Shown here: in pieces, positions 2,600 through 64,000 of the stretch
Layout of the letters: each line of letters opens with the position of its first letter
Position numbering within the stretch: the stretch's first letter is position 1
NCBI GenBank assembly: GCA_018830945.1
Contig: JAHJRD010000093.1
Coordinates: forward strand, 14,495-78,494
Length of the DNA stretch: 64,000 nt
Direction: 5' to 3'
DNA from: Nanobdellota archaeon
GTDB lineage: Archaea > Nanobdellota > Nanobdellia > SCGC-AAA011-G17 > GW2011-AR17
Program-made: the position numbers and the translations under genes
The notes under the pieces: model-generated
Database searches by the model: none
The model's input: only the letters and a program-made list of their open reading frames with translations
What the model was told of the DNA's origin: nothing

Positions 2600-3133
2600 T
2601 TATAGCCCTCCGCCAGTAGCTCGGAAATTTTCCAAATTGCATCCCAACTCTCTTGCTATTCTGTGCAATTCTGTGTTTACATTACTGCTCCCCCGCTGGT
2701 ATCCCGAAAGGCTTTCAACAGTAACCAGCGACGGGTTGTCAATGCCATACAAAAGCTTTGTTTCAGGAGTAACCAGCATTCCTATATAATTCGCATCAAA
2801 CCCTATCTGCCGCCTAAACTCATCAATATCCTGCTGAGAGAAATTCCTTGCAAAATAATTGCCATGCTTCCTTATCGTCCCTATAGTATGCGTGTGAAAC
2901 ATTACATAGCGGTAGTCCGGGTTTCTCTCAAAAAATTCATTTGCAACTTCTACCCTGTCTGTTTGAGGCCTGACATGCCCTTCACTTCCTATGCCTAACA
3001 TGAAAAGCGAATCTATCGGGCAGTATTCTCCCCTTTGCCTGTAGAATAAAACGCCGTCAACCTCTTCTGACAGCAATGCAAGGTTATCCAGCCTTTTTTC
3101 AATATCCCTTGGTAATACCACTGTTCTTGCCAT
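2600..3133 (-). CDS. putative metal-dependent hydrolase, possibly JAB/MPN-like
   Basis: An upstream Glu, then HTH (MFHTHT), then a downstream SQQD (SxxD-like). The spacing between HxH and SxxD is longer than canonical JAMM, so the call is tentative. Confidence 0.3.
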   Translation of the reverse strand: MARTVVLPRDIEKRLDNLALLSEEVDGVLFYRQRGEYCPIDSLFMLGIGSEGHVRPQTDRVEVANEFFERNPDYRYVMFHTHTIGTIRKHGNYFARNFSQQDIDEFRRQIGFDANYIGMLVTPETKLLYGIDNPSLVTVESLSGYQRGSSNVNTELHRIARELGCNLENFRATGGGL

Positions 3134-3135
3134 TT

Positions 3136-3516
3136 TTATTCCCTGAATTCCGGTCCTGCATACGACCTTGTCAAATCAAAAGGACGTACAGCAAGCTTAA
3201 GCCTTATACTGCCGTCAGGCCTGTACATTGCTTCATAATGATTTCCCTCTGCATCTTCACAAAGAGTCTCATACATTCCATTGCCGTTAATGTCTTCTGC
3301 CCTTGGGCTGCAGTTTTCTAATAGATGTTCAGCCTGATCCAGAGGCACATACCCTGGCTCTGTTGGCCTTGATTGATTCATATTGCATGTAATTGCTGCA
3401 AGAACAGCAACCACTAAAGCAGGAAGCCCTACAGCAACTCCTTTTGCAATTCTTGCATCTCTCCTTTCCTGCTCTGCTCTTAAATCATGGTTGTATATGT
3501 TTCTTTTTCTGAACAT
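3136..3516 (-). CDS. membrane-anchored hypothetical protein
   Basis: One N-terminal TM helix (VAVGLPALVVAVLAAI) followed by a Cys-containing extracytoplasmic region. Preceded by GGAGG 5 nt upstream of the ATG. Confidence 0.4.
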   Translation of the reverse strand: MFRKRNIYNHDLRAEQERRDARIAKGVAVGLPALVVAVLAAITCNMNQSRPTEPGYVPLDQAEHLLENCSPRAEDINGNGMYETLCEDAEGNHYEAMYRPDGSIRLKLAVRPFDLTRSYAGPEFRE

Positions 3517-3518
3517 TT

Positions 3519-3692
3519 TTATTCCTCCTTCAACTGCGTTGATAGTCCTGAAAAAGAGGCCACAATCCCCCGCTCTTTCAGCTCTTTAAGGAAATGCTCA
3601 ACATTGTTTGCAAGCTGCTCAGGATTTGTCTTGTCTGTAATGTTTACGTCAATGCTGATTCTGCTTGGCTTGAATTGTTTTGTTTGTTCCAT
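3519..3692 (-). CDS. small hypothetical protein (57 aa, not in ORF list)
   Basis: ATG near 3692, protein MEQTKQFKPSRISIDVNITDKTNPEQLANNVEHFLKELKERGIVASFSGLSTQLKEE. The stop lies 2 nt before the start of the next gene, so the two are tightly coupled. Confidence 0.3.
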   Translation of the reverse strand: MEQTKQFKPSRISIDVNITDKTNPEQLANNVEHFLKELKERGIVASFSGLSTQLKEE

Positions 3693-3694
3693 TT

Positions 3695-4030
3695 TTAGTC
3701 CCTTTTAGATCTCCCCATCTCAACTTGGCTTTTATATCCAATGCTTGAAGCGTAATCCCCCACTATCTGCTCTACCACGCTCTGCGGAGCTATGTTTTCC
3801 AAAAATGCATTGCTTGCGCTCGCCCTAATCTGCCTGCAGCCTGGATCTATTTTTATCTGCCCAAAACCAAGAGTTTCATCAAGTATAATTTTGTCAAGCA
3901 TCATTTGTTTCTGTATTCTGGAAAGAGTGTCTCCAGCCCTCAGCTGCAGTCTTCCTGTATTGTCTTTTATAACAACAAATGTATAAAGGCCATCAGGAGG
4001 CATTTCCTGTAGATATGGTTTAGTTTCCAT
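3695..4030 (-). CDS. hypothetical protein
   Basis: Start moved to the internal ATG (METKPYLQ...), which is preceded by AAGAGGA. No recognisable domain. Confidence 0.4.
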   Translation of the reverse strand: METKPYLQEMPPDGLYTFVVIKDNTGRLQLRAGDTLSRIQKQMMLDKIILDETLGFGQIKIDPGCRQIRASASNAFLENIAPQSVVEQIVGDYASSIGYKSQVEMGRSKRD

Positions 4031-4138
4031 TTTATTTTCCTCTTTATTGTTCCCAAAGCACAGGGTATCCCTGCGCATCGTATTTTAGCATGTAAATATG
4101 CCCGTCAAGTCCTTTCTGGTTTTTGTCTTTTGCCATTT

Positions 4139-4594
4139 TTATTTGCCTCCGACTGCATCTTCAACATCATCAACAAGCCTTCCAGCAAGATTATGTGTTT
4201 CTGCAAGCAGAGCCCTTCTTTCCTGGGGTGGATTGCCGCAGCCTCTTGAGCTTGGCTTCGGCGAATGGTTCCCGCCTTCAACAACCCTTCCGCTCGTAGT
4301 AATTCTAATCTGCCTTCCGTAATTCGGCTGCACAACTATGATGTACTGCACGCCCTGCGGACTTGTATAATTCCCGCTCTTCGGCGCAAGAACATGCTCA
4401 GGCTTGACAGAATGTTCCAGCGTTCTGTTTCTTGAACGCCTTCTGCCCGGGTTCCGCTGGCTTCCTGAATGATTCTGCCCTGCAGCATCCATTGGCGCAT
4501 TGTAATTGTTTTCGTCTTTTCCGCAGCCGTACTTGCATCCTGTAGAAAGTGCAAGCGCGACCACAATTGGTGTTATATATCTTTCGTAGCTCAT
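4139..4594 (-). CDS. putative lipoprotein
   Basis: Start at MSYERYITPIVVALALSTGC with a lipobox-like LSTGC. Strong SD (GGAGGGG) upstream. Confidence 0.4.
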   Translation of the reverse strand: MSYERYITPIVVALALSTGCKYGCGKDENNYNAPMDAAGQNHSGSQRNPGRRRSRNRTLEHSVKPEHVLAPKSGNYTSPQGVQYIIVVQPNYGRQIRITTSGRVVEGGNHSPKPSSRGCGNPPQERRALLAETHNLAGRLVDDVEDAVGGK

Positions 4595-4595
4595 T

Positions 4596-4940
4596 TTACA
4601 TCCCCTCCTGCGTTGCAGGAATTCCATATATTCCGTTTTCATCGCATGACAGCTTTTGAAGGCTTCCGTCAGGCAGCCTCACGCTTGGGCCTCTTTCAGC
4701 AAACCCCTCGCATGTCAGCTCAAGCTTGTTCAGCTCAGCAATTTGCCTGGATTGTTCTCTGGATTCTTGCCCAGATAGAAGAAGACCGCCTGCACCAAGC
4801 CCTGCTATGAGTATAGTATAAGCTGCTGCTTTTCTAAATGGCATATACAGTTTGCCGCCAATAGAATACAATCCGTCCCTCTCTGGTGTTGCTACCTCTG
4901 TCTTCACTTCCGGCTTATCGCCCTTCTTGTTGGATTCCAT
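4596..4940 (-). CDS. membrane hypothetical protein
   Basis: Central TM helix (AAAYTILIAGLGAGGLLL). SD AGGAGGGG upstream. Confidence 0.4.
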   Translation of the reverse strand: MESNKKGDKPEVKTEVATPERDGLYSIGGKLYMPFRKAAAYTILIAGLGAGGLLLSGQESREQSRQIAELNKLELTCEGFAERGPSVRLPDGSLQKLSCDENGIYGIPATQEGM

Positions 4941-5009
4941 TTTTTACCCCCTCCTGTGTTTTGAGAGTCAGGAAAACTCTTATTTGTTACTATTTAGTGA
5001 TACTAACTA

Positions 5010-5130
5010 GTATATAAAACTTTCTGTGAAAAGTTGCAAAAGTGCCCTCTAATCGCCGTATAAACCCTGAAAACAAAGTTTTATAGGCTAATAAATCTCC
5101 CCTCGTAAAAGCTCCCTTGAAGAATAGGCC
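5010..5130. promoter_or_regulatory. upstream element family 1, copy A (contains palindrome CTTTCTGTGAAAAG)
   Basis: Similar to sequences at ~5570-5700, ~7571-7700 and ~39275-39400. Lies 5' of minus-strand gene 4596..4940. Confidence 0.3.
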
Positions 5131-5132
5131 AT

Positions 5133-5558
5133 CTAGCTTTCCACAATCTCTTTCAGCTTTTGTATAATCCACTTGAATTCAAGCTCATTCTGCTTAAGGT
5201 AATTGCCGCTTACATTAAATCCCCTGTAGCCTATATCGTGCCTTACCCTTCTTAATTCGTCAATTTTCATTGTTTCATATTCAAAATCCGGCGCGTGTTC
5301 CACAAGGTAAGAAATGAGGCATATATGGTTTGAGCAGTCAAATCCTTTTTTGTAAAGCAGGGCAAACATAATCTCCTTCATTATTTCGTAATACGCTTCA
5401 ACTTTAAGCGCTGAAAATTTAGAATCAATCTGCCTGTCCCAGAATTCAAAGCGCAGCATTGCCATGCTAATAAGATGGCTGGCGCGCTCTGCATCAGGCA
5501 CAATGCGTGCAACAGCACCCTGCTCAATGCATTCTTTCCAATTCATCAGTTTTTCCAT
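5133..5558 (-). CDS. HEPN domain protein (toxin-like partner of upstream MNT)
   Basis: All-helical ~140 aa with an R..H-type motif (ELRRVRHDIGY), immediately downstream of a nucleotidyltransferase gene. Confidence 0.6.
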   Translation of the reverse strand: MEKLMNWKECIEQGAVARIVPDAERASHLISMAMLRFEFWDRQIDSKFSALKVEAYYEIMKEIMFALLYKKGFDCSNHICLISYLVEHAPDFEYETMKIDELRRVRHDIGYRGFNVSGNYLKQNELEFKWIIQKLKEIVES

Positions 5559-5569
5559 CGGGAAATTGC

Positions 5570-5700
5570 TTGTAAAAGCCCTTAATAAAGCTTTTCCATA
5601 AAATTCCGCAAATATTTCAGCAAAGCTGGAAAAGTTTCAGCATTGGCGGAAAATCAGCGCAAATATCTACTGCTTTCTGAAAGATTTACAGCCTGTCTAA
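5570..5700. promoter_or_regulatory. upstream element family 1, copy C
   Basis: TTCCGC...GGCGGAAAAT inverted repeat plus CTGCTTTCTGAAAG palindrome. About 70% identical to copy D. Confidence 0.3.
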
Positions 5701-6222
5701 TTTCACAAAACCATATAAGATTATTCCGTTAAGCACATTGTTTTGCAGCGGCGAGGCGAGATTCCCTATTTCAGGCTCAAAAATAACGTGGATTTCCCTG
5801 CCCAATGATTTTTCAAATTTTGCCAAATCCAGCTTTGCTTCATGCGCTTCAACAAAAAGGTCTATATCGCTCCCTTTCCGGTAATCGCCTTTTGCGCAGC
5901 TTCCGTAAAGGATTATGCAAGAGGGCAGCGCTTTTTCCCATACATATTGTATTAGCCCTGACTGGCTTATCTGAAATACAATCTCATTCTTCTTATAAAA
6001 GAGGTAATGCTTGTTTTCAGTGTTTGCGCGGTACGTAGGATAAAGGGTTGTCTTGTTGATTGTTACAAGTTCAAGTTTAACAAAAGGAGTTATATGGTTA
6101 AGCACAGTCGCATGGTTCTGCTTCAGCCTCCTTGCTATTTCCCTTATGGAAAAGCCTGCATCAGGCTCTTCTATAAACAGCTTCAGCATCCTGTAGTCCG
6201 TATTTTCAAAAATCTTATGCAT
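5686..6222 (-). CDS. wHTH-fused minimal nucleotidyltransferase (MNT, Pol-beta superfamily)
   Basis: GS-x9-13-DxD motif (GSCAKGDYRKGSDIDL) with an N-terminal winged-helix region. Confidence 0.7.
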   Translation of the reverse strand: MHKIFENTDYRMLKLFIEEPDAGFSIREIARRLKQNHATVLNHITPFVKLELVTINKTTLYPTYRANTENKHYLFYKKNEIVFQISQSGLIQYVWEKALPSCIILYGSCAKGDYRKGSDIDLFVEAHEAKLDLAKFEKSLGREIHVIFEPEIGNLASPLQNNVLNGIILYGFVKLDRL

Positions 6223-6319
6223 TTTAATTGGTTAATAAAATAACCACCTGGTTAGAATAATAACCATAAGTTAATAAGCTTTGCGGAAGCTGCTTTCCCT
6301 CGTAAAAGCCGCCTTCCAA

Positions 6320-6859
6320 TTACTGCAACAGCCCCTCAACCTTGGTTATAAACTCATCCGCATCTGCAAACGCAGACAAAGCATTCTGCCTTGCAATAGC
6401 AGGAGTCGCATCATACTGCGCAGATTCCCTGTTTGTTTTTGCCTGCGCGAGCTTTGTTATCATCGCCTCGCTTAATGAATAAGCATTTGAAAGGCTGTGC
6501 AGGTGCTTTGCATCAAGCTTCTTCTTAAGCACATAGGCATGTTCAAGCACTGCAAGCGTTGCTGCATGGCTTCTTGACTTGAATGAGATATTTGCGAGAG
6601 CAGCCAGTGCAGAAACATACATTGAATAATAAGCTATTATGACAACCCAGTCGTATGCCTCAAAATCCGAAGGCATGCTTAACATTTCCTTAAAATCATC
6701 TTTATTGGAAATATCCATAAGAAAGGCAGCAAGCGCAAAATTCTTTCTTGCTTTCTTAAGGAAAGGCTGTTTCAGCCTTATGAATGAAACATCTTTTTCC
6801 AGCTGTTCTTTCTTGAAATATATGCTGATTCTTCTCTTGAGCATATATTCCTTTTTCAT
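6320..6859 (-). CDS. HEPN-like domain protein
   Basis: Helical ~180 aa overlapping the upstream MNT by 4 nt. Conserved YY..Y and R-x-S-A-Q-Y region. Confidence 0.5.
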   Translation of the reverse strand: MKKEYMLKRRISIYFKKEQLEKDVSFIRLKQPFLKKARKNFALAAFLMDISNKDDFKEMLSMPSDFEAYDWVVIIAYYSMYVSALAALANISFKSRSHAATLAVLEHAYVLKKKLDAKHLHSLSNAYSLSEAMITKLAQAKTNRESAQYDATPAIARQNALSAFADADEFITKVEGLLQ

Positions 6860-7488
6860 GCAGCCATCTCCCAGAAAAGCTCAAGCCCGTACAGCGGAAG
6901 CCCATACCCCTTTGCCTCTTTTCCTATGTTAAGCCCTTTTGAAGCAAGCATTTTCCTGAATTCAGCAATATCCGCAATGACAGGGCTTACCTTGATGCTA
7001 TGAGAATAGCGGAAACCAGCGCACTGCCTTTCAATCTCTGCCCTTAATTGCTTGTTTTGAATGCTGTCTATTATGAAAAGCAAATCCACATCTGAATCTT
7101 TTGCCGCACCCCCCCTTGCATAGCTGCCAAAAAGTATTATTGAGCGGATGCCTGTTTGAAGATGGTTTTCCATGTTTAGCATCAAATTTTCAGATATTCC
7201 TTTCAGCTTTACATTGCTTTTGAATAACTCCTCTTTCCTTGCAATATCCGCTTCCTGCAGGAAATGCCTTGCCTTTTCGCTTTTTAAGTTAATGAAGCAC
7301 TGCTTTGCCCTGCCGACTTCATTTATTGTTATTATGCCTTCCTTGTGCATTGCTGTCAAATGGTTGTATGCAGGCCTGTACCCTATTTTCAGTGTTCTTG
7401 CAATTTCCAGCATTGTCATCCCCTTATCCAGATTTTTCCTGAACAGCCTGATTATTTTAATTAATGTCTCCCTTCTCATATTATTCAC
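6856..7488 (-). CDS. wHTH-fused minimal nucleotidyltransferase (MNT)
   Basis: GSYARGGAAKDSDVDL motif with an N-terminal wHTH (LEIARTLKIGYRPAYNHL). Confidence 0.7.
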   Translation of the reverse strand: MNNMRRETLIKIIRLFRKNLDKGMTMLEIARTLKIGYRPAYNHLTAMHKEGIITINEVGRAKQCFINLKSEKARHFLQEADIARKEELFKSNVKLKGISENLMLNMENHLQTGIRSIILFGSYARGGAAKDSDVDLLFIIDSIQNKQLRAEIERQCAGFRYSHSIKVSPVIADIAEFRKMLASKGLNIGKEAKGYGLPLYGLELFWEMAA

Positions 7489-58091: not shown

Positions 58092-58925
58092 TTAGGGACA
58101 CTCGGGTCCGACACATATCTTACAATGTGCACAATTAGCAGTATGTGAATTAAACCAATCATTTGTGCTAGAATCTCCGTCATCACACTTAGGAATATGT
58201 TCACAAGTTTGATTCTCTGCATCATATCTATCATAGGTTGTAATATCGCCATCGTCACATGTTGAAGGACAATCTGTATTTATTTCTCCAGGATTCTTAT
58301 TTGGGAAATTACATTCCCCTACACCAGCGCTACCCGCACTTACTGAAGAACCTCCACAGATTAATTCTCCGGTTGAAGGAATTTCTATAGAACTATATTC
58401 TGTTGGCATGCCCTGATTTAAATCCAAACAGTCTGCTTCGTTGTCATCACAATATCCATCATTTTGACAGGGTTTTATTGGGCGATTAGAACATGAAAAT
58501 TCTAAGCCCTCTATCATTTCCTGTCCGCCCCATCCTTCACAGTTATCAGAAGTACAAATGTTATTATCATTACATGAGATAAAGGTGCCATCTTTACATG
58601 TAGATGTTTTATTTAAACAATTATTTTGTACTGGCTCATGAGTACATTTATAGTCTGTTTTTTTTGAGCATATATCTTGTGTGCAAGGATCACCATCATC
58701 TTCACATGTTTGATTGCAAGTGCCACACTTAATCGGACAACAATAGGATTCTATCACATCTAAGTAAGGAACCGCACAATCGTCGGGAGCTGAACACAAA
58801 TATCCGTTAAATGCTGAGCACCTATTTTCTTTTACCATCTCTCTTGCTCGTGCTTCCTGTTCAGGTGTGCAGCCGACTACTGCAAGAAGTAAAATACCTA
58901 AGATTATTGCGATATATGCTTTCAT
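58092..58925 (-). CDS. Cys-rich repeat lipoprotein (bacterial-type lipobox LLAVVGC)
   Basis: Start at MKAYIAIILGILLLAVVGC. Repeated D-x-C-T-x-D-x-C ... C-x-H units (DGDPCTQDICS, DNNICTSDNCEG, etc.). Confidence 0.5.
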   Translation of the reverse strand: MKAYIAIILGILLLAVVGCTPEQEARAREMVKENRCSAFNGYLCSAPDDCAVPYLDVIESYCCPIKCGTCNQTCEDDGDPCTQDICSKKTDYKCTHEPVQNNCLNKTSTCKDGTFISCNDNNICTSDNCEGWGGQEMIEGLEFSCSNRPIKPCQNDGYCDDNEADCLDLNQGMPTEYSSIEIPSTGELICGGSSVSAGSAGVGECNFPNKNPGEINTDCPSTCDDGDITTYDRYDAENQTCEHIPKCDDGDSSTNDWFNSHTANCAHCKICVGPECP

Positions 58926-58968
58926 ATAGCTTCTAAGAGGGTATTGGATTATAAGCTTTTCGTGGGGT

Positions 58969-58984
58969 TTGGGGTACACCCCAA
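58969..58984. terminator. palindrome TTGGGGTACACCCCAA
   Basis: Lies ~18 nt downstream of the lspA stop on the minus strand. Same core as ~57095. Confidence 0.35.
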
Positions 58985-59510: not shown

Positions 59511-62165
59511 ATGAAAAAAAGAGTGATTTGGCTATTTGGATTAATGCTAATTCTCTTTGCAGCTAATGCTTTTGCGCTTGAAATTAATTTTAGAGATAAA
59601 AGCTACCCAGGATACTTGTTTATCCCTCTTTTGCTTATTGCAGTAATCTGGGTTGTAATAGTTACAATGTGGCTGTTCAGGCATTTCAAGGGATTGTCGC
59701 TTTTCTTTTTTAATGTAGGCAAGTTTGTCTCGCAATTTGGGATAGGAGCAGGATTAAAAAAGCTAAAGGAAAAAATAAAGGAAAGCGGCAAAAAAGATGG
59801 AGAGGAAACTGTTGTCAAGAAGGCTGAAATAAAGGAGGAAGAGGCAAAGCGCGATTTGACAGGATTTGTTGCAAAAGTTGATGCACTTGAAAAAAAGCTT
59901 GAGAAAACAAAAGATACCAATGAAGTTCTTAAGGAATTTGGCCCCATGGTCAAGGATTTCCTTACCGCATTATTAAATATCCACTATGAGTTCACTGACG
60001 CTGAGATTGCCGAGGTGCTTGAGAAAAAGAAAAAGCATCTTGTTGATTTTGCGCAGAAGATTTCTGACATGAAGTTCAGCGGCAAAAAAGTGTCCAGGAA
60101 GGAAATTGAAACAAGTGTAAAGGAGTTCAAGAGCATTGTCCACAAATATGTTGAAACAGGATGGAAGCCAAAAAAGGTTGCAAGGGGCATTATTGAACGC
60201 CTGGCTGAGCAGGACAAGAGAATACTCACGAATGTAAAACAGTATGTTGATTTCCTCAAGCACGAAAACAGGAAAAAGCAGATTGAATCCCTGCTTGCTG
60301 ATGAAGAGGAGATACTTAAGAGAAACGTCCGCTCAATGAAGCATACATACAACAGGATACTGAAGATGTATGTCCAGCTTACGCCTAATGACAAGGCTGT
60401 TGTCTATCCGCAGCTTGTTGAGTTTTACAACAATGCAAACAAGGCAATATTCTCAAGCGTTTACGGCAAGAAAAGCAAGAAAGAGCTTGAATATTTTGTA
60501 AGGGAATTGAAAAGGCTTAAAGAGATGCCGAAAAGAGAGCCGTGGCTGCTGAGGATGAAGCACAGGATTTCAATGCCTTCAAAAGAGCTCAAGATCAAGG
60601 CGCCAAAAGCGCCTGCTGTGAAAGCTAATAAGAAAGTAAGGGAAAAAGTAAAGCTTCCATCAATAAAGCCGCTGTTTGTAAAGCTTGTCAAGGTGTTCAG
60701 GCCGTCGGAAATAAGCGAAAAAAGAGCAAAGAGAATGTTCAAGCCAAAGAAGGCTGAGAAAATAAAGCTTAAAGAGCCTACATTAAAGCCATTGCTTGAA
60801 AAGATAAGCAGTGTCAAGGAGATTGGAGAATCATTCAAGGCATCGTTCAGGGAAAGGTTTGGCAAGAAAATACCAACAATCACAGAAAAGCTCATCGCGC
60901 CAAAGCCGCCAGAGAGCAGCGAAAAAGTATTTGAAAAGCAAGTTCCAAAGCCAGGCAAAACAATGCCTGAAGCAGGGGCAATAGCAGAAATAGGCAGGCT
61001 GCTTGAGCAGACTCAGACAATAGAAAAAGTGAATTATGCAGAAAAGCTCAGGCAGAAGATGTCAGAGGGATGGAACCTGATTGCTGTTTCCAACTTCAAG
61101 GCATTTGACGAGCTGTATGAAAAAATAAAGATTGATTATGTAAACCTTAGCAAGGAAGAGCAAACAGTGCTTGGACCGAAGATAATAACATTGCATGACG
61201 CTTCAATCAATGCAAGGACGCAGAATACAAGGAATGCGCTTTTGGAAAAAGAAAAGGCAGTGGAGGGCGCTTTAATAAAGCGCGCAGAAGCAAAGGAAAA
61301 AAGAAAAACACAGACAGAAGCCCATAAAATCCTTTCTGCCATAGAAGCAGAGTTTGACGAGGAAGCGGAGCTGAGAAAGGAGGAAGATGAGCTGCTAAGG
61401 CTTAAGGAGGAGAGAAATAGAAGGCATGAGTATGATTTAAGGAAAAAAGAGCAGCATAAGGTGCAGGCAGGGCTTAAGAAAATTGACTGGCTCTTCAGGG
61501 AAAGGGCAAGGCTTGACAGGCAGCAGGAGAAAAAGAGAAAAGAGGAAGAGGAAGTAAGATTCCAGGAAGAGCGCAGAAGAATCCGGCTTGAGGCTGAAAA
61601 AAAGAAAAAAGAGCAGGCTGCTGCAAAGCAGGAGATTGCATATATTGACAGGATGTTCATGGAGAAGGCTGAGGCTGAAAGAAAAGCAGAAAGGCAAAGG
61701 AGAGATGAGGAAAAGCTGAGGCTTGAGGCGCTGCAGCAGGTTAAGCAAGAGAACACTGCAAGGCAGCGCAGCGAATGGCTTATCAAGAGGGAAGAGGAAA
61801 GAAAAAGAAAAGATATTGAAAGCAGAAAGAAAGAGACTGAAAAGTTCAGGCTTCAAAAGGAAAGAGAGATAAAGGCTGCAATGCGCGAGACGAGCCTTCC
61901 GGCGCTTGAATCCCTTGAGGATGAATTGCGCAGGCGGATAAGTGAAATAAGCAAATCTTCTGCGCCTGGCGAGAACATGAAAGAAAGGGTTATGAAGGAA
62001 GCTGAGATTGTCAGGAGAGAGGCTGAGATTAAAAGGAGCATTGAGGAAAGGAAGAGAAAGCTGCTTGCGCAGAAAAAGAGAAAGAAAGAGGATGTTGTTT
62101 CTCCATTAGAGCAGGAGCAGCTGAAATTATTATTGGAATTGGAAAGGATAAAAGAAGGATTATAA
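59511..62165 (+). CDS. signal-peptide/TM-anchored protein with ~750-aa K/E/R-rich charged helical region
   Basis: Signal peptide plus one TM helix, then extreme charged low-complexity sequence (…RKKEQHKVQAGLKK…EKKRKEEEEVRFQEERRRIRLEAEKKKKEQ…). Confidence 0.5.
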   Translation: MKKRVIWLFGLMLILFAANAFALEINFRDKSYPGYLFIPLLLIAVIWVVIVTMWLFRHFKGLSLFFFNVGKFVSQFGIGAGLKKLKEKIKESGKKDGEETVVKKAEIKEEEAKRDLTGFVAKVDALEKKLEKTKDTNEVLKEFGPMVKDFLTALLNIHYEFTDAEIAEVLEKKKKHLVDFAQKISDMKFSGKKVSRKEIETSVKEFKSIVHKYVETGWKPKKVARGIIERLAEQDKRILTNVKQYVDFLKHENRKKQIESLLADEEEILKRNVRSMKHTYNRILKMYVQLTPNDKAVVYPQLVEFYNNANKAIFSSVYGKKSKKELEYFVRELKRLKEMPKREPWLLRMKHRISMPSKELKIKAPKAPAVKANKKVREKVKLPSIKPLFVKLVKVFRPSEISEKRAKRMFKPKKAEKIKLKEPTLKPLLEKISSVKEIGESFKASFRERFGKKIPTITEKLIAPKPPESSEKVFEKQVPKPGKTMPEAGAIAEIGRLLEQTQTIEKVNYAEKLRQKMSEGWNLIAVSNFKAFDELYEKIKIDYVNLSKEEQTVLGPKIITLHDASINARTQNTRNALLEKEKAVEGALIKRAEAKEKRKTQTEAHKILSAIEAEFDEEAELRKEEDELLRLKEERNRRHEYDLRKKEQHKVQAGLKKIDWLFRERARLDRQQEKKRKEEEEVRFQEERRRIRLEAEKKKKEQAAAKQEIAYIDRMFMEKAEAERKAERQRRDEEKLRLEALQQVKQENTARQRSEWLIKREEERKRKDIESRKKETEKFRLQKEREIKAAMRETSLPALESLEDELRRRISEISKSSAPGENMKERVMKEAEIVRREAEIKRSIEERKRKLLAQKKRKKEDVVSPLEQEQLKLLLELERIKEGL

Positions 62166-62188: not shown

Positions 62189-63208
62189 TTATTCTGATTT
62201 CTTAGGGCTTCTTGGCGCCCTTTTTGCTCTTTTGGCGCGGCGTTCGTCTTTTTCCTTTTCGCGCTGCTGGTTTGCCTCTATTGAAGCCCAGCGTTTTGCA
62301 TTAATCTTTGCAAAGTTCACAGGATTTCTTATCTTTGAGCATAAAGGCAATGGGCTGCAGAATTGTAATTCTTTATAATATTCAACCTTGTCGCAGTTTG
62401 GCGGCAAAACAATTATTTTCTGCTTCTTGTGCCAGTTTATCTGCTCCAGCACATAGTTTTCCCTCAACGGCTCAGAATGGTTATTGTTCCACTCATAAAG
62501 CTTTTTCTCAATATCTTCCCAGCTCCATCCGCAGTGTATGAGGAATTTCAACAAAAGGAACAACGCCCTCTTTTTGCCGTCATCAAGCTTTGAGCTTAGA
62601 ATCTTTTTCATGCACGGCGGGAAGCACTCTTCTTTTACAACAATCTTTTCATCCTCAATGCCTGATGATTTCTTTCTCTCAGCAGCTAAGTTTAATTTAT
62701 CCTCTGCCCTGCCGTCCCTTTTTGCTTTTTTATCCCAGTCAAATGCCTGTATTATTAATGAAGATGCCTCATTCTGCTTTGCAGCTTCCCTGTCAATGAA
62801 TTTTAATACTGGCTTTACTGCAAACGGCTTTGCCTTTTCTTTTTCAAATGTTAAAATCTCATCCTGCTTTATGGGCAAAGAAACCAGTCCTGCCTTTTCA
62901 TGCAATGAGTATGGCGCCCTGAACATGTGCCTGCTTGAAATCAAGACAGTGTCAATGTCAACTATCTTGAAAGGGTCAAAGGAACCGTCCAATATAAGTT
63001 CATCAATTCTTTTCCCTGCTTTTTCCGCTATCTGCGATATATGCTCCTTGCTTAATATTGCTTCTGACAAGTGCCCTTTTATCATGTTTTGGAGGTAAGC
63101 AGCAATCACTCTCAGGCTTTCAGGGAACAGGTCTTTTGTTTTTATGCCGTTGACTTCGTCAGGGAATGCCTCAAAAGGCACTGCAATATGAAACCCCTTG
63201 TTTCCTGA
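62189..63208 (-). CDS. C-extein downstream of an intein junction; provisionally archaeo-eukaryotic primase small subunit (two short PriS-like motifs only) with a Cys-rich C-terminal domain
   Basis: The intein ends at ...LLLHN and the host sequence resumes at S230 (SGNKGFHI). SGNKGFHI resembles PriS motif II and VDIDTVLISSRHMFRAPYSLHEKAGL resembles motif III; these two short stretches are the whole basis for the primase call. The C-terminal Cys-rich stretch (CFPPC...HCGWSWED...NCD...C..C) is unassigned, a PriL-like Fe-S domain being one guess. The protein N-terminus lies beyond the window. Confidence 0.35.
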   Translation of the reverse strand, partial: SGNKGFHIAVPFEAFPDEVNGIKTKDLFPESLRVIAAYLQNMIKGHLSEAILSKEHISQIAEKAGKRIDELILDGSFDPFKIVDIDTVLISSRHMFRAPYSLHEKAGLVSLPIKQDEILTFEKEKAKPFAVKPVLKFIDREAAKQNEASSLIIQAFDWDKKAKRDGRAEDKLNLAAERKKSSGIEDEKIVVKEECFPPCMKKILSSKLDDGKKRALFLLLKFLIHCGWSWEDIEKKLYEWNNNHSEPLRENYVLEQINWHKKQKIIVLPPNCDKVEYYKELQFCSPLPLCSKIRNPVNFAKINAKRWASIEANQQREKEKDERRAKRAKRAPRSPKKSE

Positions 63209-64000
63209 ATTATGCAGGAGAAGAGGATAATAATTCCCAAAAAAAGCCTCTGTTCCTTTAACAGAAATGTCATAAACTTTAGCAGAACTTTTTTTGGTTA
63301 TGGATTTTACTTGTAAAATACCCACATCAGAATCTAATAATAACTCATAATTTGCAATAATCTCCTTTGAATGAGCATCAAATTCATTAGAATTAAATCT
63401 CTTGAACCATTTTATTACATTCCATATTCTTTCTGCATTGGCTCTTTTCTTGCGTAATGTCACCTGTTCAAGGCGATGATAATTAAAAAATTTAGGTTTA
63501 ATTTGCAAATAGACTCTTTTAAGCCCGTCAACTGGAAAGGTCCTATCTCTTGGGAATGGAGAAAATTTATTCCTACCCCTGAAAAATTCCTGTAAATTAA
63601 GCTCAGATTTCGGTATATTGAGTATATAAACAAAACTTCCTTTGAATATATTACCCTGCGGCAGTTTATGGGGCTTATTTTGTTCACAAGAAAGGGAGCA
63701 AGAAATCCCGTTTAATTTACAAAGCCAGAGCAGTTCAGTAATGAGCTTATGCGCAACAGATTTAATAGCGATATGGTATTTGCCCAGCTTATAACCATCG
63801 CCCCTTATATAGCCCTTTAAAAGTTCCATAAAAAGGGGTTTAGGAAGATTCCAAGCAAATTCAGGTATATGCTTATTCTTTTTTTTACCGCACAAATTCT
63901 CAAAAAAAGAAGCCCATTCTTTGGAATGGATTAATATTTGTGTAGAACCAGCATTAGGGTGCCTTATTGAGATATGCCTTTTCGTTACGCTTAAAAGAAG
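63209..64000 (-). mobile_element. intein (LAGLIDADG homing-endonuclease type), C-terminal part; continues past window end
   Basis: Block F/G VYDISV...FGNYYPLLLHN|S, LAGLIDADG-like LLKGYIRGDGY. The reading frame stays open through 64000. Confidence 0.6.

Follow-up and report, generated by a model that had tools for sequence, protein, structure and literature searches.

A LAGLIDADG intein predicted to interrupt a fused archaeal primase at catalytic motif II

The interrupted gene and its intein

The last gene of a 64,000-nucleotide stretch of a Nanobdellota archaeon contig (GenBank assembly GCA_018830945.1, contig JAHJRD010000093.1, positions 14,495 to 78,494; hereafter the window) is read on the minus strand from the window end inward. 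Its 603 sense codons contain no internal stop and the frame is still open at position 64,000, in agreement with a sequence-only reading of this DNA that had described an intein within a tentatively identified primase. Residues 1-264 of the frame belong to the intein, and residues 265-603 (339 residues) form the host protein that follows it (the C-extein), in which primase motifs II and III are followed by a linker helix that leads to a PriL-type C-terminal domain. The Pfam domains follow in the order Intein_splicing, DNA_primase_S and DNA_primase_lrg (residues 198-264, 262-377 and 434-539). It is highly probable, in our view, that the product is the precursor of a monomeric primase of the DPANN 'cluster 2' type, the replicative primase of the cell, and that a class-1 LAGLIDADG intein lies directly before motif II of the archaeo-eukaryotic primase (AEP) domain.

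The open reading frame (ORF) program had listed this gene as 568 residues starting from an internal TTG at 63895. That start is an artefact of the listing, because the frame continues upstream and off the window. By analogy with relatives, whose N-exteins are of ~126 residues and whose inteins are of 440-447 residues, the 5' part beyond the window end would be ~0.9 kb long and would encode ~180 intein residues together with an N-extein of ~126 residues. An exact 40-nucleotide search with the last bases of the window gave no match in genome, metagenome or viral contig collections, and the window protein itself is absent from a collection of 5.8 billion proteins, where its best match is 88% identical.

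The intein portion ends in splicing blocks F and G and carries a LAGLIDADG motif, both noted in the sequence-only reading, as was its length within the listed ORF (~230 residues estimated, 229 counted). Block G reads ...YYPLLLHN and is followed by SGNKGFH, thereby providing the penultimate His, the terminal Asn and the +1 Ser (residues 260-265). The LAGLIDADG motif is the second of two, and its residues R66, G67, D68 and G69 are invariant in the intein alignment (A2); the first motif lies off the window and reads LIGYFLAEGH in relatives. The TIGR01443 model (intein_Cterm) matches residues 241-265 with 14.6 bits at a cut-off of 15.6. A word-indexed protein search with the intein part returned 12 matches (best E=2.3e-118), most of them truncated intein-containing primases whose N-exteins end in ...G(I/V)KF and whose inteins begin SV(S/T/A)GDTP.

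The site of insertion was fixed by alignment with intein-free homologues, which are up to 88% identical, as ...VKF / SGNKGFH.... The best of these homologues (P0001, 457 residues, 88% identical to the C-extein) reads ...ALKFHNITCMGVKF-SGNKGFHISVPFEAF..., which puts the insertion between Phe and Ser, right in front of AEP motif II. The contig that encodes P0001 (L032) is syntenic with the window, has the same large coiled-coil gene downstream and carries an empty site. In DNA it is 85% identical over window positions 63205-62230, a match that stops one codon (3 nt) short of the intein/extein boundary, and in translation the two are similar right from 63208, the +1 Ser codon; on the intein side of the boundary no similarity between the two was detected. 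On its C side the insertion is thus in frame by both protein alignment and DNA comparison, exactly where the sequence-only reading had the host resume (SGNKGFHI, at motif II). A free-standing homing endonuclease ORF abutting the primase gene was also considered and is ruled out by the continuous frame and by the HN/S junction lying exactly at the homology boundary.

The N side of the intein can be read in relatives. Scanning GTDB species representatives with the intein alignment identified 30 loci, all labelled as archaeal metagenome-assembled genomes (MAGs), mostly of Pacearchaeota, Woesearchaeota or Nanoarchaeota. The intein is therefore not unique to the window: all 30 of these reference DPANN genomes carry a homologous intein at the identical site, within uninterrupted ORFs. 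The pattern at the site is the same in 30/30 (...KF, then S...LLHN, then SG(N/S/G)KGFH), with HN and the +1 Ser in every case, and the N junction reads ...KF followed by SV.GDT. Every relative to which an automated N-junction check could be applied (27/27) has Ser1, the block B signature T-x-x-H and a first LAGLIDADG motif that is acidic, with Glu-Gly at its end (pattern L.GY[FY]L[AS]EG); a strict ...RGDG second motif is present in 22/27. Ser is an accepted N-terminal nucleophile of class-1 inteins. The absence of Cys at the intein N-terminus, which had been proposed as grounds for refutation, is thus too narrow a test, as all 27 checked relatives start with Ser. Taken together, the gene appears to carry a full-size class-1 intein with a LAGLIDADG homing endonuclease, for which splicing and endonuclease activity are both predicted. 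The features of the gene are collected in Table 1.

Table 1. Features of the primase precursor gene in window coordinates; residue numbers refer to the 603-codon open frame.
Feature	Position	Strand	Remarks
Primase precursor gene, 3' part	62189..64000	-	603 codons + stop at 62189-62191; last gene of the window
Intein, C-terminal 264 residues (part of LAGLIDADG homing-endonuclease domain + splicing blocks F and G)	63209..64000	-	Pfam Intein_splicing, residues 198-264
Second LAGLIDADG motif, LFMELLKGYIRGDGY, residues 56-70	63791..63835	-	catalytic Asp of RGDG
Intein blocks F and G, VYDISVKGTEAFFGNYYPLLLHN, residues 242-264	63209..63277	-	ends in penultimate His + terminal Asn
C-extein start, AEP/PriS motif II SGNKGFH, residues 265-271	63188..63208	-	+1 Ser codon TCA at 63206-63208
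C-terminal half of PriS catalytic (AEP) domain	62831..63208	-	Pfam PF01896, residues 262-377
PriS motif III region, DIDTVLISSRHMFRAPYSLHEK, residues 348-369	62894..62959	-	invariant residues; aligns to human Pri1 motif III
End of PriS domain + long linker helix to PriL-like domain	62636..62830	-	secondary structure of models
PriL C-terminal-domain-like module	62309..62635	-	four conserved Cys, predicted [4Fe-4S] ligands
Conserved Cys codon, C463	62612-62614	-	
Conserved Cys codon, C536	62393-62395	-	
Conserved Cys codon, C548	62357-62359	-	
Conserved Cys codon, C554	62339-62341	-	
Lys/Arg/Glu-rich C-terminal helical tail	62192..62308	-	variable among homologues

A fused PriS-PriL-type host protein

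The C-extein belongs to a large family, with 2716 homologues at E≤1e-3 (best E=1.9e-191). The 120 homologues listed are 254-513 residues long, mostly 420-480; the majority bear a PF01896 annotation, and in some PF04104 is annotated as well. Among the matches listed, those named by source are labelled Nanoarchaeota, Woesearchaeota or Nanoarchaeia. In an alignment of 60 family members (A3, P0001 numbering) the invariant residues include D94 and D96 of motif I, which lie in the N-extein of family members and off the window in this gene, S127, G128, G131 and H133 of motif II, and D212, R219, H220, R223 and K231 of the motif III region. Three cysteines (C325, C398 and C416) are likewise invariant and a fourth is conserved in the consensus of the 60 homologues. 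The window protein has both motif II (SGxxGxH) and motif III (hD... RxPxSxHxK), with all invariant primase residues of the C-extein intact. Moreover, the A3 profile matches human Pri1 through motif III and P. abyssi PriL (9f26_B, E=1e-4) through FPPC and PPNC..C..C. A structural model of the intein-free homologue P0001 (predicted local distance difference test score 90.7) retrieves AEP structures at the top, matching the LigD polymerase domain, Prim-PolC, human and yeast Pri1 and Pyrococcus PriS with E-values of 1e-5 to 1e-7.

The remainder of the C-extein resembles the C-terminal domain (CTD) of the large primase subunit. PF04104 matches residues 434-539 of the window fragment with 28.8 bits against a cut-off of 22.4, and the best match to NCBIfam PriL models has E=2.4e-8, its score falling well short of the full-length cut-offs as that of a lone domain would; NCBIfam also returned matches to PriS models and to intein-containing models. 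The Cys-rich tail contains cysteines at residues 459, 463, 490, 536, 548 and 554, and four of these (C463, C536, C548 and C554) form the pattern FPPC ... PPNC ... C ... C when aligned to P. abyssi PriL. The model of the window's C-terminal domain has a helical fold for which PriX and the PriL Fe-S domain are the best matches (PDB 5of3_C, 6di2_A and 9f26_B, best in both structure and sequence). In those systems the domain sits on a separate subunit of a heterodimer or heterotrimer, whereas in the window protein it is fused to PriS. The PF04104 match covers only profile positions 86-191 of 266: the PriL N-terminal domain, which docks on PriS, is missing, and in the models a linker helix is all that stands between the PriS and PriL-like parts. 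This fits a fused architecture of the NEQ395 type, not a stand-alone PriL. By its sequence the C-extein is that of a DPANN-type primase in which PriS and a PriL CTD form one chain, as in its 420-480-residue, DPANN-labelled homologues, and it is predicted to bind a [4Fe-4S] cluster.

The two profile models were also applied to a spliced product assembled in silico from the N-extein of P0001, not that of the window, and the window C-extein. Both cut-offs were passed by this chimera (PF01896 29.3 vs 26.8; PF04104 29.5 vs 22.4). The sequence-only reading had based its tentative PriS assignment on motif II and on a motif-III-like stretch, and had guessed at a PriL-like Fe-S domain in the Cys-rich tail and at a compact fused primase of nano-sized archaea. 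The stretch does align to motif III of human Pri1, the assignment has gained a family of over 2700 proteins with PF01896 and an AEP fold for P0001, and the domain matches given above bear out the PriL guess. The fused form agrees with published work on NEQ395 (PMC10250227) and on DPANN cluster 2 (PMC7414124).

The fused enzyme NEQ395 is the sole replicative primase of N. equitans, and its four Cys bind a [4Fe-4S] cluster (PMC10250227). Its PriS domain polymerises, its PriL-like domain is needed for initiation, the cluster is dispensable in vitro, and a linking helix between the domains is described (PMC10250227). Undinarchaeota and DPANN cluster 2 share the priS-priL fusion as a synapomorphy (PMC7414124). 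NEQ395 and the window protein are alike in being a single chain with an AEP domain, a linker helix and a four-Cys PriL CTD, and in lacking the PriL N-terminal domain. Compared by spacing rather than by alignment, the cysteines lie 73/12/6 residues apart in the window protein and 75/12/8 apart in NEQ395 (C289, C364, C376 and C384). They differ in that the window gene has an intein of ~445 residues before motif II, whereas the NEQ395 paper never uses the word 'intein' (PMC10250227).

Based on standard intein chemistry and on the residues present here and in relatives, the precursor would be of ~910 residues (N-extein ~126, intein ~445, C-extein 339) and its Hint domain would fold first. Ser1 would then undergo an N-O acyl shift, the resulting ester would be transferred to the +1 Ser, and the terminal Asn would cyclise with the aid of the penultimate His. 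A final O-N shift would reseal the peptide bond to give ...VKF-SGNKGFH..., in which motif II is continuous. Before splicing, motif I (DxD) of the N-extein would be separated from motifs II and III of the C-extein, and thus the precursor should be inactive and splicing obligatory. By homology with NEQ395, the PriS part of the mature enzyme would make the primer and the PriL-like part would support initiation. For homing, the conserved coding sequence of motif II would be the target at which the endonuclease cuts intein-free alleles, and repair from an intein-bearing copy would then insert the intein into the cut allele.

Two variations on the fused primase were observed among relatives. In five of them (L009, L020, P0133, P0134 and P0136) the Cys of the PriL CTD are replaced, with FPPI, FPPV, YPPS or FPPA for FPPC and PPNY or PPNF for PPNC, so that in some DPANN lineages the PriL-like domain seems to be without a cluster. 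Many relatives (L002, L009, L012, L020, P0133, P0134 and P0136) have an insert of ~80-100 residues between PriS motifs II and III that contains several CxxC pairs and resembles a Zn ribbon; the window protein and its close relatives are without it.

Spread and history of the intein

To place the intein more widely, its window portion was searched exhaustively with HMMER against 1.84 billion cluster representatives, which gave 261 matches at E≤1e-3, 21 of them at E≤1e-30. The strongest matches (roughly E≤1e-26, about 25 clusters) lie almost all at motif II of AEP primases. Their hosts are DPANN fused primases, canonical Zn-knuckle PriS (P0143 and P0152) and divergent AEP or prim-pol proteins (P0139, P0140, P0144, P0145, P0148, P0150, P0153 and P0154). 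More distant matches are inteins in FtsH-type proteins and, judging from junction motifs, probably in secretion-type ATPases and RFC. The divergent AEP primase P0140 (L033 8001-10229; JGI 3300080917) carries a homologous intein of 48% identity, and its 54-kb contig holds dozens of small ORFs running in the same direction, for which Pfam gives almost no matches (HNH, DUF932, IS605 OrfB); the contig has the look of a virus or plasmid. When IMG/VR was scanned with the intein alignment, 41 pattern matches came up and none was confirmed; the patterns are specific to the DPANN subclade, and more distant viral copies may have escaped them.

These matches suggest that the window intein may belong to an undescribed clade specific to motif II of AEPs, circulating among DPANN fused primases, Zn-knuckle PriS and virus- or plasmid-borne AEPs with mobile elements as likely vectors. 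We hold this view tentatively, being almost as ready to accept it as to doubt it. If true, it would close the one gap, at primase, in the network of archaeal replisome inteins drawn by a 2016 survey.

Several individual loci deserve mention. A Woesearchaeota MAG (L013, CAZSNJ010000006.1, ORF 3011-7183) encodes a primase with two inteins, one at the motif II site and a second LAGLIDADG intein inside motif III (...RAPY / SVDFNEPVC...ILLHN / SLHEK); Pfam finds two Intein_splicing and three LAGLIDADG_3 stretches in it. The 895-residue protein P0149 has a homologous intein (38% identity) in the context ...DFYAF / SVSGDTP...LLHN / SAHKMLGPTG, where the residues on the N side resemble the primase site; by eye, its host may be a class-V aminotransferase or cysteine desulfurase. 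Four records carry source labels that look wrong, namely 'Candidatus Paceibacterota bacterium' (P0129) and 'uncultured Methanosarcinales archaeon' (L023, L026 and L027). All four encode a DPANN-type fused primase with this intein, and mis-binning or mis-classification is therefore likely.

In the window, the intein DNA is compositionally foreign. Its GC content is 34.0% and that of its third codon positions (GC3) 29.2%, compared with 41.7% and 46.6% for the C-extein and a GC content of 41.8% for the whole window; only 0.16% of equal-sized windows are as AT-rich. Over all 264 intein residues the 30 genomes are 58-68% identical to the window, and the corresponding C-exteins are 38-52% identical. 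Neighbour-joining trees with bootstrap were built for inteins and exteins separately. The window C-extein groups with its five closest exteins with 100% support, all five of them intein-free and the closest four 73-88% identical. The sister of the window intein is that of L030 (84% support), the extein of which falls in the other major extein clade. Because composition, the empty site of the syntenic relative, the contrast in identity and the conflict between trees come together, we favour a fairly recent horizontal gain of the intein in this lineage.

Part of the tree evidence runs the other way. The intein and extein trees have several sub-clades in common, for example L004/L009/L010/L017/L020. 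For much of its history the intein has thus been inherited vertically, and a recent gain is proposed for the window lineage only. It could accordingly be argued that the intein is ancestral in the primase family and vertically inherited, its absence from the close relatives then being due to precise deletion. The Ser codons lend this some support: Ser1 is encoded by AGY in 27/27 intein-bearing alleles with a readable N junction (L002-L031) and the +1 Ser by TCN in all 30 intein-bearing alleles and the window, while the single Ser of five empty alleles (L032 and L035-L038) is AGC in three, as a precise deletion keeping the Ser1 codon would give, and TCA in two. This pattern may record precise deletions or co-conversion, in a small sample of five empty alleles. 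We nevertheless regard ancestral inheritance in the window lineage as unlikely, given that the intein is a strong outlier in GC and GC3, that its five nearest exteins all lack it and that it pairs with an intein from the other major extein clade.

Alternatives, known systems and neighbouring genes

Some observations count against the identification of the gene as an intein-bearing replicative primase. The N-extein with motif I, the intein N-terminus (block A nucleophile and block B) and the first LAGLIDADG motif are all off the window, the intactness of the whole gene would follow by analogy from its relatives, and splicing and endonuclease activity are predictions from sequence. On the fragment, PF14890 (Intein_splicing) scores 21 bits against a cut-off of 35.8 and PF01896 scores 21.3 against 26.8, because only half of each domain is present. 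Complete relatives pass the Intein_splicing cut-off (L024, 45.1 bits; L013, 133.5 bits); PF14528 is above its cut-off in these two and unreported for the window fragment. Finally, decayed copies probably exist, as a related allele (L001 6001-8612; ENA ERZ25039515 contig_34079) has two frameshifts. There the intein-containing primase is split over three frames, with frame changes near 7400 and 7990 and a PCNA gene divergent and upstream; either the allele is decaying or the assembly is at fault.

That allele, together with the location of the 5' third of the window gene off the window, would be compatible with a window copy that is itself decaying or non-functional, its intein splice-dead or the gene broken upstream, with priming by another gene. 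We consider this very improbable. The 603 codons are uninterrupted, every C-side catalytic residue and all invariant primase residues are intact, and the ORFs of 30 relatives are uninterrupted. Furthermore, in DPANN cluster 2 genomes the fusion is reported to take the place of separate priS and priL genes (PMC7414124), and N. equitans lacks any further AEP domain (PMC10250227).

A further proposal, compatible with the identification as an intein-bearing replicative primase, is that the intein has been co-opted as a conditional switch gating the enzyme post-translationally. Its position in the catalytic core would keep the precursor inactive, and conditional splicing is known from other replisome inteins (PMC6195587). 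However, with Ser as both junction nucleophiles there is no obvious redox-sensitive Cys, the distribution is sporadic and the closest relatives lack the intein; a switch of this kind thus has little likelihood here. Least probable of all is that the gene is the AEP primase of an integrated virus or plasmid, for although homologous inteins occur in divergent AEPs, one on the virus-like L033 contig, and fused PriS-PriL proteins occur on plasmids as well (PolpTN2, PMC3973330), the C-extein belongs to a large DPANN fused-primase family, some members of which are labelled Nanoarchaeota or Woesearchaeota, the locus shares synteny with a relative, the sampled large window ORFs include housekeeping and transport genes, and the composition apart from the intein matches the window.

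Inteins are concentrated in replisome proteins. DnaG, which bears inteins in bacteria, shares the host function of primer synthesis with the primase described here and is a TOPRIM enzyme unrelated to AEP/PriS. The survey of Novikova et al. (2016) draws 'Pri, primase' among the critical archaeal replisome proteins without inteins, singling it out together with PCNA, and the primase inteins that it lists are of bacterial DnaG only, 14 in number (PMC4760082); the remark in the sequence-only reading that primase is not a commonly listed intein host was thus apt. As with the class-1 LAGLIDADG inteins of archaeal MCM and PolC/DP2 (PMC4760082), the insertion lies in a highly conserved active-site motif of a replication protein, and HN with a +1 nucleophile and a sporadic distribution are shared; going by its relatives, the window intein probably also shares the full set of Hint blocks and two LAGLIDADG motifs. 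Unlike them, the window intein has a primase as its host and Ser as both nucleophiles, Ser1 being known from relatives only. PolpTN2, encoded by plasmid pTN2 and called highly divergent, is described as a PriS-PriL-CTD fusion primase-polymerase and by that description follows the same fusion logic (PMC3973330). A literature search, made without subscription journals and intein databases, found no description of an intein in archaeal PriS or in any AEP primase, and its candidate papers concern polymerase, ribonucleotide reductase, MCM or dCTP deaminase inteins. The fused primase and the class-1 LAGLIDADG intein are both types already known; the host and the insertion site appear to be unreported.

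The results add archaeal primase to the intein hosts, through the window locus, 30 reference DPANN genomes and about 25 clusters in other AEP primases, with the insertion in the most conserved catalytic motif of the enzyme. They also bear on annotation: such genes are named 'LAGLIDADG homing endonuclease' or 'hypothetical', and their scores with PriS and PriL hidden Markov models drop below the cut-off. The intein could mark DNA exchange among DPANN archaea and their mobile elements, and for protein engineering it offers a natural Ser1/Ser+1 intein. The mechanism is an ordinary one, the understanding of primase or intein function is unchanged, and the interest is a modest one for specialists in inteins and DPANN archaea.

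Turning to the rest of the window, scans for tRNA and Rfam families found no RNA gene in it. Ten large window ORFs were sampled, and the five with Pfam matches (SecD/F, ABC-2 and TctA transporters, a T2SSE-type ATPase and an M23 peptidase) are typical cellular genes. Convergent with the primase gene and separated from it by a 23-bp spacer is a plus-strand gene (59511-62165) for an 884-residue Lys/Glu-rich protein, probably coiled-coil, with hydrophobic N-terminal segments and no Pfam match. The gene is conserved in L032 and its place there is syntenic, with two additional small genes between it and the primase. On the minus strand, a 295-residue Cys-rich ORF (58092-58979) with a hydrophobic N-terminal segment may encode a secreted or surface-exposed protein.

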